Source: a candidate division FCPU426 bacterium (GTDB lineage: Bacteria > Oederibacteriota > Muellerivitia > Muellerivitales > Muellerivitaceae). Taken from it: 15,202 nucleotides of DNA. The stretch lies in contig CAWKAR010000004.1 of assembly GCA_963847625.1 (NCBI GenBank), positions 1 through 15,202 on the forward strand, written 5' to 3'. Under the pieces are notes generated by a model. It was not told where the DNA came from and searched no databases. It saw only the letters and a program-made list of their open reading frames with translations. The position numbers and the translations under genes were made by a program. Shown piece by piece: positions 2,611 to 10,697 of the stretch (its first letter is position 1; each line of letters opens with the position of its first letter).

Positions 2611-2871
2611 TTTATATTTGATTAATGAAGGACTTGAAACCGTGGGGGTGCGGGGGTGGGCCCCCGCGTCTTAAACGGGGTAACATAGGGGGATTTTCCC
2701 CTATGAGCGCGAAGCGTGGTTCAATGTCCCTCCAGGCGCACCATATTATTTTATTTAAAAGGGCTCGAAACTGTGGGGTGCGGGGGTGTGCCCCCGCGTT
2801 TCAATGGGGTAACGTAGGGGGACTTTCCCCTATGAGCGCTTTGCGCGGTTCGAGTTCCTCCAGGTGCACTA
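2611..2871 (+). repeat. Two tandem tRNA-linked hairpin units (133 and 128 bp), each ending in a copy of the tRNA-Arg 3' end
   Basis: Copies GGTTCAATGTCCCTCCAGGCGCACCA (2718-2743) and GGTTCGAGTTCCTCCAGGTGCACTA (2847-2871). Both units share internal GC-rich hairpins. Confidence 0.9.
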
Positions 2872-2958
2872 TTTTTTAAAATTGGTACGCACCATTATTA
2901 ACATCCTTGATCGCACGAATATTAGAGGTAGAACCTGAATCCTCACGACGCAAAACAC

Positions 2959-3426
2959 ATGCGGGCCGCGATACGGGAAGCAAAAAAAGCCGCCAAGATG
3001 GGCGAGGTGCCCGTGGGAGCGGTCGTCATAAAAGATGGCAAGGTGGTCGGGCGGGGATACAATTTAACCGAGTCCAAGAAAAACGCCCAGTTCCATGCCG
3101 AATTGGTGGCCCTGTCCAGAGCTTCCAAGAAACTTAAAAGCTGGCGCCTCAACGGTTGTGATTTATACGCGACTTTGGAACCCTGTACCATGTGCGCCGG
3201 CGCCGTGGTTTTATCCCGGATTCGGCGCCTGGTTTACGGGGCGCTGGATCCCAAGGCCGGGGCGGTGGAAAGCACGGCCGGCGTATTGCGCAACTCCAAA
3301 TTGAATCACCGGGTAGATGTCACCAGCGGTATATTAAAGGAAGAATGTTCCGGGATTCTGGGTGATTTTTTCAAGGAACTGCGGTCCAAACGGTTGAAAC
3401 AGGGAAAAAAGTTCCTGGAGCGTTAG
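2959..3426 (+). CDS. tadA: tRNA-specific adenosine-34 deaminase
   Basis: GEVPVGAV, HAE and EPCTMCAGA zinc motifs, YGALDPKAGAV, LNHRV, FFKELR. The true start may be CTG at 2935. Confidence 0.93.
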   Translation: MRAAIREAKKAAKMGEVPVGAVVIKDGKVVGRGYNLTESKKNAQFHAELVALSRASKKLKSWRLNGCDLYATLEPCTMCAGAVVLSRIRRLVYGALDPKAGAVESTAGVLRNSKLNHRVDVTSGILKEECSGILGDFFKELRSKRLKQGKKFLER

Positions 3427-3451
3427 GTTAAGCTGTTTGTTTTCGCAACGT

Positions 3452-3527
3452 GGGGATGTAGCTCAGCTGGGAGAGCGTCTCGTTCGCAACGAGAAGGTCG
3501 GCGGTTCGATCCCGCTCATCTCCACCA
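3452..3527 (+). tRNA. tRNA-Ala(CGC)
   Basis: 76-nt cloverleaf, G3:U70 pair, anticodon loop TTCGCAA, GGTTCGATCC T-arm, encoded CCA. Confidence 0.96.
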
Positions 3528-3757
3528 ATTTTTCTTTGAGTATTGGAACCTGGAAGGTTCCAATGTTAATGGAAATTGGCGCGTCCCAATGGCGACAATA
3601 GATTAGGTTCCAATGATCCATTGGGGCACCAATTTTTTCGTGAAACGAAAAAATGAAGCAATTGGACAATAGGAATTATGGCTGTTAGATAAAAAATTGC
3701 GATCTATTGCTCAATTATTCCATTTTCAGGCGGGACATGCCCGCCCTTGTTTTTTGT

Positions 3758-3848
3758 GGAGAGGTGGCCGAGCGGCTGAAGGCGCACGCCTGGAAAGTGT
3801 GTAGGCTCCAAAAGGGTCTCGAGGGTTCGAATCCCTCCCTCTCCGCCA
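3758..3848 (+). tRNA. tRNA-Ser(GGA)
   Basis: GGAGAGG/CCTCTCC acceptor, anticodon loop CTGGAAA, long variable arm, G73 and CCA, 91 nt. Confidence 0.96.
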
Positions 3849-3865
3849 TTATTTTAATAAATAAT

Positions 3866-3970
3866 GGATTCGAAGCCTGAAGGGGTGTGGGGAAGAGGCT
3901 TCCCCGCATTGTTCGATGGGGTACACGGGGGTTTTTCCCCGTGAGCGCTCTGCGCGGGTCGTATCCCTCC
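3866..3970 (+). repeat. tRNA-linked hairpin unit behind tRNA-Ser
   Basis: Inverted T-arm copy GGATTCGAAGCC, hairpin 3885-3909, GGGGTA, CACGGGGG/CCCCGTG, GCGC-TCT-GCGC, then degenerate direct copy GGGTCGTATCCCTCC. Confidence 0.8.
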
Positions 3971-4123
3971 TACTTCTCAATTTCTTCAAGTATAGATGTC
4001 ACGTTCATGGTCCCTTTTCTCCCTGTTTTATTGGTTTCTTCTGGGAAAAACGCAAATCTTAACCCCGAGAAAACTTCTACTCCGATGGAAAAGCCGACGA
4101 GTTTTCGTTTAAGATATTGGCCC

Positions 4124-4248
4124 GCACCCCGGCGTGGAAGTCGGGTCCTATACGGCGAGCTGGCCCCAACTCCGCCAGGTCCGGAAGGAAGCAACGGTAA
4201 GGCATGTGTTCGGGTGTTGTAGGTAACCTGGCTTCCACGGCGGGATGC
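4124..4248 (+). ncRNA. ffs: Signal recognition particle RNA (small 4.5S type)
   Basis: Conserved domain IV CCGCCAGGTCCGGAAGGAAGCAACGG, long closing stem CGTGGAAG/CTTCCACG, typical position upstream of dnaX. Ends are approximate. Confidence 0.92.
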
Positions 4249-8840: not shown

Positions 8841-8990
8841 GGAAAACCATTGTATCCAAAATCCACTTTCAACGCCGTTTTGCCGTTTCCTTTGTTTCTT
8901 CCCGGGTTCTTGTATGGGAAAGACCTTTTCCCTCATGAAGAACGTTTTTCAGGGCTAAAATGAATCCCATCTAATAAACAAGGAGCTTAA

Positions 8991-10025
8991 ATGAAGGTAC
9001 TTTTGATTGGTGGAACGGGACTTATTTCCACAGCCATCGTGAACCATCTGGTGGAACGGGGGGATGAGGTAACGGTCTATAACCGGGGGGTCACCCCCCG
9101 GCGCATCCCAAAATCCGTCAAGGAAATGAAGGGCAACCGCTGGGACTATCCCGCCTTCGAGAACCAGATGAAGGACGTGAAGGTTGACGCTGTGATCGAC
9201 ATGGTGGCCTTCGCGCCCGAAAACGCCGAGTCGGTCCTGCGGGCCTTCAAGGGCCGGGTAAAGCACATCGTGGTCTGCTCCACCGTCTGCGTGTACGGCG
9301 GGCCCATGACCAAGCTTCCCGCCGATGATAACGAGCCCCACCGGCCCGTCGGCGAGTATGGAAAGAACAAATCCAAGATCGAGTCCATCCTGCTGGCCGC
9401 CGACGGCAAGGACGGCCTTCATACCACGGCCATTCGTCCCTCCTATACGACCGGCAAGGGAGCCGAGTACCCGGGCCTCCTTTTTGACAACAGCCTTCCC
9501 AACCGATTGAAAGCGGGCCTTCCCGTCATCGTCATGGACGACGGCCGGGCCGCCTGGGCCGTGGCGCATATTTCCGACGTGGGCCGGGCCTTCGCGAACT
9601 CGCTCTTGAATCCCAAGGCCTACGGCCAGGCCTACCACGCCACCAGCGACGAGCACACCACTTGGGACGGGGTTTACAAGGCCATGGCCGACGCGGTGGG
9701 GGGGAAATTCAACCCCGTGCATATCCCCACCGACTGGCTTTACGAACAGGCCCCCCGCCGGAGCGTGGGAGTGAAGTTTATCTACCAATATCCCTCCATT
9801 TTCGACAACACGAAGGCCAAGCGGGACCTAGGGTTCAAAACCACCGTGCCGTTGGTGGAAACCTGGCGCCGCCAGTTCGCCTGGATGGAGGAAACGGGAA
9901 AAACAAAAAAAACGCAGGAGGAGAAGTTCGAGGATTTGATGATCGAGGCTTACCAGAAAGGCCGCAAGCCCGACCTTCCGGAGGGGATGGATTTTAATCC
10001 CTGGGGCAACCAAACCACGAACTAA
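8991..10025 (+). CDS. NAD-dependent epimerase/dehydratase (extended or atypical SDR)
   Basis: Rossmann motif LIGGTGLIS, STVCVYG, YxxxK (YGKNK), IRPS, HISD. SD AAGGAG upstream. Confidence 0.9.
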   Translation: MKVLLIGGTGLISTAIVNHLVERGDEVTVYNRGVTPRRIPKSVKEMKGNRWDYPAFENQMKDVKVDAVIDMVAFAPENAESVLRAFKGRVKHIVVCSTVCVYGGPMTKLPADDNEPHRPVGEYGKNKSKIESILLAADGKDGLHTTAIRPSYTTGKGAEYPGLLFDNSLPNRLKAGLPVIVMDDGRAAWAVAHISDVGRAFANSLLNPKAYGQAYHATSDEHTTWDGVYKAMADAVGGKFNPVHIPTDWLYEQAPRRSVGVKFIYQYPSIFDNTKAKRDLGFKTTVPLVETWRRQFAWMEETGKTKKTQEEKFEDLMIEAYQKGRKPDLPEGMDFNPWGNQTTN

Positions 10026-10105
10026 ACAGTTTGGTTTGTGCAGTTCACCTTGAAAGATTAATATCGAAACTGCGCAATAACATAACGACCTAAATTCCTG
10101 GAATC

Positions 10106-10133
10106 TTGACATTTCAAGGAGGTGCTTTAGACT
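10106..10133 (+). promoter_or_regulatory. Sigma70-type promoter for tRNA-Asn
   Basis: TTGACA (10106-10111), 16-nt spacer, TAGACT (10128-10133). Confidence 0.55.
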
Positions 10134-10227
10134 ATCTCTCCCCAAAGTGCTTTTAGCCTTTGGTTTTGCCGTTAATTCATAACTCAAAATTTAAAATTCA
10201 TAATTCCCGCGCCTTTTGCGGGCATCT

Positions 10228-10302
10228 TCCCCGGTAGCTCAATGGTGGAGCATCCGGCTGTTAACCGGAGGGTTGTTGGTTCGAGTCCAACCCGGGGAGC
10301 CA
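10228..10302 (+). tRNA. tRNA-Asn(GTT)
   Basis: TCCCCGG/CCGGGGA acceptor, anticodon loop CTGTTAA, GGTTCGAGTCC T-arm, G73 and CCA. Confidence 0.96.
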
Positions 10303-10310
10303 TTAAAATA

Positions 10311-10346
10311 AAAGGGTCACCCATTCTTTATGGGTGGCCCTTTTTT
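10311..10346 (+). terminator. Rho-independent terminator
   Basis: GGGTCACCCAT-TCTTT-ATGGGTGGCCC followed by T6, directly after tRNA-Asn. Confidence 0.8.
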
Positions 10347-10358
10347 AGTTTAGTCGTT

Positions 10359-10697
10359 TCCCCGGGTTGGACGAGAACCGTGGGAAAGTCTGAAAACGGG
10401 AGTTTTCAGGCCTTTCCACGGGGTACACAGGAGGCCCTTCCCCTGTGAGAGCGAAGCGAGGTTCGATGTCCAATCGGGTTAAAGGGGTATGGGGGATAGT
10501 TTGCCCCCCATGCTTTTCGAAGGGTACACAGGGGTACTTCCCTGTGAGCGCGAAGCGCACCCGGGTTGGACGAGAACCAGTGGGAAATTCAGAAGAACAA
10601 AGTGCTGGGGGTCCGGGAAAGAGGTTCCTTCCTTAGACAATTTTTAACGAATTATTTAGGGTATCATAGCGGTAATTTTCCCCTATGAACGCGTAAC
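10359..10697 (+). repeat. Cluster of three tRNA-linked hairpin units behind tRNA-Asn
   Basis: Inverted tRNA-Asn 3' copies CCCGGGTTGGACGAGAACC at ~10361 and ~10560, direct copy GGTTCGATGTCCAATCGGG at 10460-10478, GGGTA-hairpin cores at 10421, 10522 and ~10659. Confidence 0.85.

Follow-up and report, generated by a model that had tools for sequence, protein, structure and literature searches.

The transfer RNA (tRNA)-linked repeats (TLRs) of Escherichia coli have been known since 1978; they are present in 22 copies at ten loci, directly downstream of tRNA or ribosomal RNA (rRNA) genes in runs of one to five units, and are described in the available portion of one account as having no known function (PMC8144298). 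Read directly in strain K-12, the repeats behind tyrT-tyrV (RtT/rttR, RF00391) and lysT-lysQ have a common layout of tRNA end, spacer, inverted T-arm, GCGAAGC hairpins and direct copy. All four tyr repeats carry a 21-nucleotide (nt) inverted arm with 18 matching bases and the same central GAG mismatch, reaching tRNA positions 49-51, followed by a direct copy from position 59, and they stand in tandem; the lys repeats share the core of the tyr repeats and have an arm of their own. The inverted arm and the GCGAAGC-type hairpin lie outside the TLR definition in the published text as far as it is available. Here we describe the same layout in a 15,202-nt stretch of DNA (contig CAWKAR010000004.1, positions 1 to 15,202; hereafter the window) from a candidate division FCPU426 bacterium of the family Muellerivitaceae, in which gene-less hairpin units of about 130 bases lie behind three tRNA loci, each with the end of the neighbouring gene present in both orientations. 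Their core family is a new variant of the E. coli layout, outside any Rfam family. An earlier interpretation made from the window's letters (the sequence-only reading) had mentioned the tyrT repeats as tRNA-linked repeats known elsewhere, and in K-12 they do show the layout.

That reading had placed six cores at 2677, 2806, 3918, 10421, 10522 and about 10659, and all six are there. The features of the three loci are as follows; C-numbers denote contigs of the source genome and L-numbers denote loci.

2534..2610, + strand: damaged full-length duplicate of tRNA-Arg(ACG), with no ARAGORN call, an Rfam score of 29.1 bits and 87.5% identity to the intact gene on C17
2586-2610, + strand: upstream copy of the repeated Arg end, the last 25 bases of the damaged duplicate
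2611..2743, + strand: Arg unit 1, with spacer 2611-2629, inverted T-arm 2630-2641, hairpin 1 2650-2667, GGGGT 2677-2681, hairpin 2 2684-2705 and mini-hairpin 2707-2717
2718-2743, + strand: direct copy of the tRNA end in Arg unit 1, with one extra T within the T-loop
2744..2871, + strand: Arg unit 2, with inverted arm 2761-2772, hairpin 1 2780-2797, hairpin 2 2813-2834, mini-hairpin 2836-2846 and direct copy 2847-2871
3758..3848, + strand: tRNA-Ser(GGA), intact target gene (ARAGORN, Rfam)
3849..3980, + strand: Ser unit, with inverted arm 3866-3877, hairpin 1 3886-3908, GGGGT 3918-3922, hairpin 2 3924-3943, mini-hairpin 3945-3955 and decayed direct copy 3956-3980
10228..10302, + strand: tRNA-Asn(GTT), intact target gene (ARAGORN, Rfam)
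10310..10344, + strand: intrinsic-terminator-like hairpin between tRNA-Asn and the first unit
10361..10478, + strand: Asn unit 1, with a 19-nt inverted arm 10361-10379, hairpin 1 10380-10419, GGGGT 10420-10424, hairpin 2 10426-10447, GCGAAGC 10451-10457 and partial direct copy 10460-10478
10473..10565, + strand: Asn unit 2 (second sub-type), with a short arm, core at 10522 and mini-hairpin 10548-10558
10560..10704, + strand: Asn unit 3, with inverted arm 10560-10578 and a decayed core from 10659

The sequence-only reading drew complete units as inverted T-arm, hairpin 1, GGGTA, hairpin 2, mini-hairpin and a direct copy beginning at GGTTC. Four of the six are complete, namely both Arg units, the Ser unit and Asn unit 1; Asn unit 2 represents a second sub-type, intact forms of which occur in relatives, whereas decay has affected Asn unit 3. 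The quoted termini are exact for Arg (2630-2641), Ser (3866-3877) and Asn (10361-10379). A start at GGTTC does not apply to the Ser unit, whose decayed copy begins with GGGTC, or to Asn unit 2, whose copy begins near tRNA position 62; direct copies often show an additional base or an altered one within their T-loop portion. The Ser unit has an orthologue in the same-genus genome that we used for comparison. What had been taken for a tRNA-Arg gene is not a working one, ARAGORN calling only Ala, Ser(GGA) and Asn(GTT) in the window. This damaged duplicate directly follows a tyrosine integrase gene and therefore marks an island end, which also comprises (13-2485) a 246-amino-acid open reading frame (ORF) without Pfam match and a small helix-turn-helix excisionase-like ORF. 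Folding as DNA, compared with shuffles, gave z values of -3.3 to -4.2 for the four complete units and Asn unit 2.

The core has the consensus GGGGTA, and its structure is conserved beyond its sequence. We trained a covariance model on 16 units and aligned 84 untrained copies from other genomes to it. The covariation reported earlier for hairpin 2 recurs in this set, with 97.5% of cells paired and both sides changed at five of eight pairs, in an alignment that is fitted to the model and whose kin copies are not independent; the whole-structure covariation score was reached by none of 500 shuffles. Pairs of the G-T type outnumber A-C pairs by 31 to 6 in hairpin 1 and by 15 to 3 in hairpin 2, which identifies the sense strand as the folded one. 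The mini-hairpin reads GCGNAGC in 58 of the 84 copies by literal count, a type of loop whose stability is a property of DNA and not of RNA. Hairpin 2 is also found by itself within other small repeats, and in one genome it forms a REP-like (repetitive extragenic palindrome) expansion that is intergenic and has no tRNA links (L095, L103, L106, L109, L112, L115, L117, L120, L124, L129, L134).

How widely is this core distributed, and how closely does it follow tRNA genes? A profile built from the six window cores alone found it on many contigs of the source genome, and the covariance model yielded 26 matches there at E<=0.01, two of them on C12, which duplicates part of the window, leaving 24 non-redundant copies. 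(C12:1-4906 repeats window 10296-15202 at 99.6% with 11 gaps, as an assembly overlap or a strain variant.) On manual reading, 14 copies lie behind intact tRNA or transfer-messenger RNA (tmRNA) genes and four behind displaced tRNA copies (Arg twice, Asp, Gln-TTG); the other six comprise two with Asn-type ends away from tRNA-Asn and four without a tRNA link. The expected enrichment behind tRNA genes is clear: a core lies within 400 nt of 10 of the 44 tRNA/tmRNA genes, a zone that makes up 0.2% of strand positions. Each of these ten loci holds one to three units and a direct copy of its own 3' end, a result reached by 0 of 60 shuffles. Direct copies are about 25 nt long and mostly imperfect, unlike the 18-19 identical bases of TLRs. 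They are also fitted to the local tRNA, as had been proposed, since the own tRNA is the best match for 13 of 14 direct copies (three ties; the miss is Asn unit 1); four further units were assigned to their tRNA by inspection. Spacers measure 9-66 nt and unit interiors 75-96 nt.

Among relatives, the model scan, with 127 candidates scored per genome, rings in 17 of 18 genomes of the same family and in none of 12 from other families of the phylum, and among the matches listed 50 of the 86 examined lie within 600 nt behind an ARAGORN-called gene. The exact core pattern occurs at 52 loci in GTDB genomes, nearly all uncultured and with contexts fitting this lineage; four come from other named groups and have unrelated contexts. 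Neither the window search against Rfam nor the search with the core matched a described family, and the RtT model (RF00391) had no match in the source genome at E<=1 with a positive E. coli control; a match to sX4 was discarded, since it covers mainly the tRNA. The two copies with Asn-type ends on both sides (C60:121967-122072 and C13:75146-75251; L010, L011) lie far from tRNA-Asn, behind a shared 70-nt repeat resembling one that flanks small GIY-YIG genes at tRNA-Asn (L174, L176), so that whole units may ride on another element.

Alleles with and without a unit were compared between the source and the same-genus genome for 15 listed tRNA types. The tRNA-Leu(GAG) locus supplies the empty and filled states that the sequence-only reading had called for: it is empty in the source genome and filled in its relative, where the flank after the downstream copy matches the flank after the gene in the source genome, as in a precise insertion or deletion. 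This match suggests that a unit consists of gene end, spacer, arm and core, with the downstream copy as the resident end. Lys(CTT) and Gln(CTG) are filled in the source genome and lack the unit in the relative, with diverged flanks. Units are also found stacked in tandem, and a terminator-like spacer precedes 30 of 59 first units by a crude ad hoc rule.

The inverted arm follows the gene in front of it. Across 49 tRNA units, it pairs with tRNA position 51 in 29 of 44 informative units, against 7 that pair with the downstream flank, and with position 50 in 20 of 41, against 1; counted by tRNA-end type, the arm reaches past the duplicated part in 14 of 23 against 1. It likewise extends beyond the duplicated part into the local gene at a lipoamide-dehydrogenase-like gene. 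Arms opposite GAG-containing T-loops mostly share one two-base mismatch, and an additional base following position 58 is frequent in direct copies; in most T-loop units the direct copy starts at G52. GTT/AAC is seen at T-loop targets only, being absent or reversed at protein-gene and terminator targets. As for the cores, the nearest neighbour lies at the same locus of another genome for 21 of 59 (chance 2.6), at another locus, and another tRNA, for 38, and within the same genome for 5 (chance 5.0). Same-genome clustering at the level of chance indicates no recent burst, and thus units that are old and slow-moving.

The sequence-only reading had inferred that the family targets T-loops, and this proved too narrow. 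In relatives, the same core with direct copy and matching inverted arm is found at further kinds of site: the 5' ends of tRNAs, the 3' arms of terminators, the vicinity of tRNA position 62 and the end of the lipoamide-dehydrogenase-like gene (PF02852). An intact second end of this gene stands behind the core at 6 of 27 loci; the other 21 were scored single, including the source genome (empty) and L342 (core plus decayed copy). The spare ends differ by 42 synonymous and 12 non-synonymous changes over about 48 and 168 sites, and a separate count over six partly overlapping loci gave a synonymous proportion (pS) of 0.78 and a non-synonymous one (pN) of 0.07. The window itself contains an array of the same layout with a hairpin unrelated to the GGGGT core:

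7163..7408, + strand: recR sister array with another core, three copies of the last 15 recR codons
7163-7207, 7257-7301 and 7351-7395, + strand: the recR end copies, each followed by an inverted copy of its own first bases

The third window copy carries synonymous changes and one L-to-F replacement. Extra recR ends occur at 8 of 27 family loci, with 74 synonymous against 5 non-synonymous differences between the first and the last detected copy, and recR arms fit their own upstream copy better in four units and equally well in two (one further unit, missed by the script, fits better by eye). A non-coding duplicate could not drift in so nearly synonymous a fashion; the spare ends of both protein genes therefore bear the mark of purifying selection and were functional for most of their history. 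Two synonymous types of recR end exchange places between L302 and L312, which represent two genera, with 1 and 2 differences crosswise and 21 of 39 synonymous sites differing in the gene body. General traffic of recR ends across genera, which we considered, was not supported by comparison with internal windows. Remnants of the recR array occur at several further loci, and one contig of run X3 (depth 3.5) shows a further unit with another spacer. The four DNA runs, all low-share contig sets of one study, offered no joint usable for reading excision.

Based on these observations, we propose the following model, to which we give about an even chance of being correct. The units would be non-autonomous cassettes that enter gene ends, likely as folded single-stranded DNA, and carry a substitute end with them. 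Each cassette, some 110-170 bases long, combines a gene end with the first bases of that end in inverted copy and with three hairpins; on insertion at the end of the host gene it would supply a new working end and push the old end downstream; with the unit defined as gene end, spacer, inverted arm and core, stacking would proceed newest first. Excision as a circle and re-entry at the first position may follow, in the manner of integron cassettes. At T-loops we would place the exchange point around tRNA positions 58-59, since the extra base and the majority of fixed changes fall there and the E. coli repeats start at 59. An enzyme acting in trans, for which an HUH nuclease or a tyrosine recombinase is a candidate, would recognise structure, namely the GGGGT-hairpin modules together with the duplex formed by the arm, and not any fixed target sequence. 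The anatomy, the spread over many loci, the pairing of the sense strand, precise presence and absence, stacking and the selection on spare protein-gene ends support this cassette model. Of the two options left by the sequence-only reading, a non-autonomous element is favoured over a structured RNA family; that reading's view of the copies as one family and its rejection of simple slippage are upheld. We further speculate, as a rather doubtful extension, that the inverted arm is a DNA guide that pairs with the target across the insertion point, where the structure-reading enzyme joins the folded cassette.

Several results weigh against the cassette model. The arm pairs with tRNA bases 50-51, which lie outside the unit, and a closed circle alone does not explain this; the cores are locus-anchored and old, as the nearest-neighbour counts show. 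Across genera, first-copy recR ends show no greater similarity than internal windows do (3 of 332 pairs, versus 3 and 0). Selection is not seen on spare tRNA ends, in which 11 changes keep and 17 break acceptor pairing and CCA is retained in 33 of 49 units. The exact core pattern had no match in viral contigs; a phage origin, searched there with two patterns, was set aside.

Nor was any gene for a partner enzyme tied to the core. Longer copies enclosing a recombinase or HUH gene, which the earlier reading had suggested looking for, were not found in searches for Y1, GIY-YIG, DUF559, integron integrase and reverse transcriptase genes. The three Y1 genes of the source genome carry their own GGGGTCAG ends and none is flanked by the core, which lies near only 1 of 30 GIY-YIG loci; an integron integrase (TIGR02249, E<=1e-60) was detected in 0 of 31 genomes, but 14 controls were silent too; a reverse transcriptase is present in one of five genomes; and a Pfam search of 63 of the 122 listed neighbour ORFs revealed no recurring mobility gene. 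As partners, we rejected GIY-YIG proteins, whose genes have their own repeats, and DUF559 proteins, present in two of five genomes and not in the source genome. A diversity-generating retroelement was dismissed because the differences are not adenine-specific and four of five genomes lack the reverse transcriptase. A TwoAYGGAY cargo was also rejected: neither the window nor 20 metagenome loci contained a match, and the accessible text of 10.64898/2026.09.22.753630 makes no link to tRNA ends. The three long Y1 transposase genes (L092-L094, on C39, C22 and C24) have ends of TIRYT type, and two of them are flanked by another insertion sequence.

These empty searches also fit a different history, the main rival, unlikely in our view yet deserving weight, in which no dedicated enzyme exists and units spread when DNA taken up by the cell recombines homologously. 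The anchors would be the upstream gene of the donor and its spare end, so that the unit lands before the working end of the recipient. At the quasi-palindrome, template switching, a process that is described as perfecting inverted repeats in the available parts of PMC3820800 and PMC8604942, would keep the arm matched, and slippage would add or remove units. The reach of the arm past the duplicated part, at tRNA positions 51 and 50 as well as at the lipoamide-dehydrogenase-like gene, speaks for it, as does the nature of the targets, which are the ends of highly conserved genes. ComEC was present in five of five genomes tested, but also in 10 of 14 controls. Recombination leaves unexplained, however, why one core with compensatory changes stands at non-homologous targets, why the direct copy starts at a fixed G52 in most T-loop units, and why the same two-base arm mismatch recurs at many tRNA loci and in E. 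coli RtT.

Two further explanations appear improbable. If the units were RtT-like RNA elements of tRNA precursors, the spare 3' end would be a processing signal and the arm would pair with the T-arm, tuning maturation or freeing a small RNA. Such a role is in keeping with an orientation in the sense of the tRNA, a folding sense strand and frequent GGGA or GGAA loops in hairpin 1; for three E. coli repeats located behind 5S rRNA, transcription and binding to Hfq and CsrA are reported in the available part of PMC8144298, and some TLRs are processed into a small RNA. It is harder to reconcile with the position of about half of the units behind a terminator-like hairpin, their patchy presence between related genomes, the dominance of GCGNAGC triloops in the mini-hairpin and the synonymous-only spare protein-gene ends. 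Slightly more improbable still, the units could be worn remnants (attL-attR scars) of islands that depend on integrases, in which case any mobility would come from resident tyrosine integrases that target tRNAs. A tRNA with a displaced 3' fragment is an island signature, with subsites at the T-loop and the stem junction in the available text of PMC4383910, and both subsites are found here; the source genome has 18 PF00589 matches, and three target tRNAs also carry islands. Scars of this kind would not account for the recurrence at many loci of one hairpin core, nearly constant in length, plus an inverted arm, nor for targets that include terminators, tRNA 5' ends and protein genes. In addition, no cargo-bearing intermediate was found, and the Gln(TTG) units occur without the island in relatives, so the island came later.

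How do the proposed cassettes relate to described elements? With TLRs they share the inverted T-arm, the GCGAAGC-type hairpin and a place directly downstream of the tRNA gene, with some copies here at other targets. The core sequence is unrelated to RtT, the hairpin cargo lies before GGTTCGA rather than after it as in RtT, and the core, unlike that of TLRs, is also used at terminators, at the 5' ends of tRNAs and at the ends of protein genes. Raised coverage at tyrT-rttR, ascribed by its authors to RNA/DNA hybrids in the available text of 10.1101/2024.07.17.603846, was not used as evidence here. Tandem arrays and a working gene with a displaced fragment recall tRNA-targeting islands, from which the units differ in their size of about 0.13 kb, the lack of an integrase, the inverted arm and the shared hairpin core.

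In the attC cassettes of integrons, the inverted arm is complementary to the cassette's own start, the newest unit comes first, order changes, and a folded single strand with unpaired bases is recombined. The units resemble these in arm, changing order, folded strand and, under the proposed model, newest-first stacking, unlike them lack an ORF, L boxes and, at non-tRNA targets, the GTT rule, and have an att-like site built from the host gene's end. REP/REPIN sequences of TnpA-REP (RAYT) or TIRYT transposases have in common with them a short motif 5' of a GC-rich hairpin, stable mini-loops and no coding capacity; the motif here is GGGGT(A) as opposed to GTAG/GTGG (PMC6006769, in the text available), the direct and inverted ends are long and target-matched, and the core is absent from the flanks of the three Y1 genes of the source genome. 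Miniature inverted-repeat elements of DDE transposons have fixed inverted repeats at their termini, a short target duplication and many nearly identical copies in a genome; here the arms change with the target, the repeats measure 20-45 nt or more and copies do not cluster within genomes. Long direct repeats around an insert, often at gene ends, also result from insertion with long target duplication (Furuta, Abe and Kobayashi 2010, PMC2853133), where an empty allele likewise exists and a mobility gene is likewise missing, but those inserts carry restriction-modification genes between near-identical repeats, and the available part of that paper describes no inverted arm or hairpin core. The SMR/PATE elements of Haloquadratum, according to the accessible text of PMC3119063, make no target duplication.

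Other small repeats occur in the neighbourhood. A second family, with hairpin feet of GTACCA/GTGCCA type (2880-2894, 3544-3632), duplicates acceptor ends like GGCGCACCA; it alternates with the GGGGT unit behind tRNA-Arg in the same-genus genome, and a loose pattern has 42 matches in the source genome. AT-rich palindromic 7-mer repeats of the AATTCAAAATT type (4257-4375, 6504-6590, 10173-10207; 141 matches in the source genome) may be linked to four-helix-bundle genes. A 22-nt inverted repeat element at 12509-12603, which recurs on C19 downstream of the tRNA-Val(GAC) array and on C24 ahead of a GIY-YIG gene, is probably another small mobile repeat. Behind tRNA-Ser(CGA), on C24 and at L401 of the same-genus genome, an arm, hairpins and a direct copy enclose a third kind of core. 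The window further encodes a signal recognition particle RNA (4139-4236; RF00169, 70.9 bits) upstream of dnaX-ybaB-recR, and ORF breaks at 11978-11981 and 14055 may be sequencing frameshifts.

The layout extends beyond this lineage. Among the metagenome matches listed for the pattern of a tRNA end, 3-33 nt and an inverted T-arm, 80 loci were examined, and 34 have a second tRNA-end copy within 400 nt (one is a convergent tRNA pair; two loci are too short). Their cargo hairpins are diverse, the covariance model matches none of them at E<=0.01, and Rfam names no cargo in 20. Common as the layout is in this sample, it falls below the filters of island finders, Islander rejecting candidates shorter than 2 kb or without an integrase (PMC4383910, in the part available).

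Searches of the open literature turned up no treatment of such units as mobile cassettes that replace gene ends. Beyond the TLR literature, as represented by the available text of PMC8144298, this family offers alleles with and without a unit, stacks whose order changes and spare protein-gene ends under selection. An old unexplained repeat thereby becomes testable as mobile DNA that would enter essential genes harmlessly. Should the arm act as a guide, the E. coli TLRs and the unrelated metagenome tRNA cores would belong to one overlooked class of gene-end-replacing mini-cassettes, altering the arm would suffice to direct a single protein to a tRNA arm, terminator or gene end of any kind, and the enzyme would be a programmable single-strand integrase.

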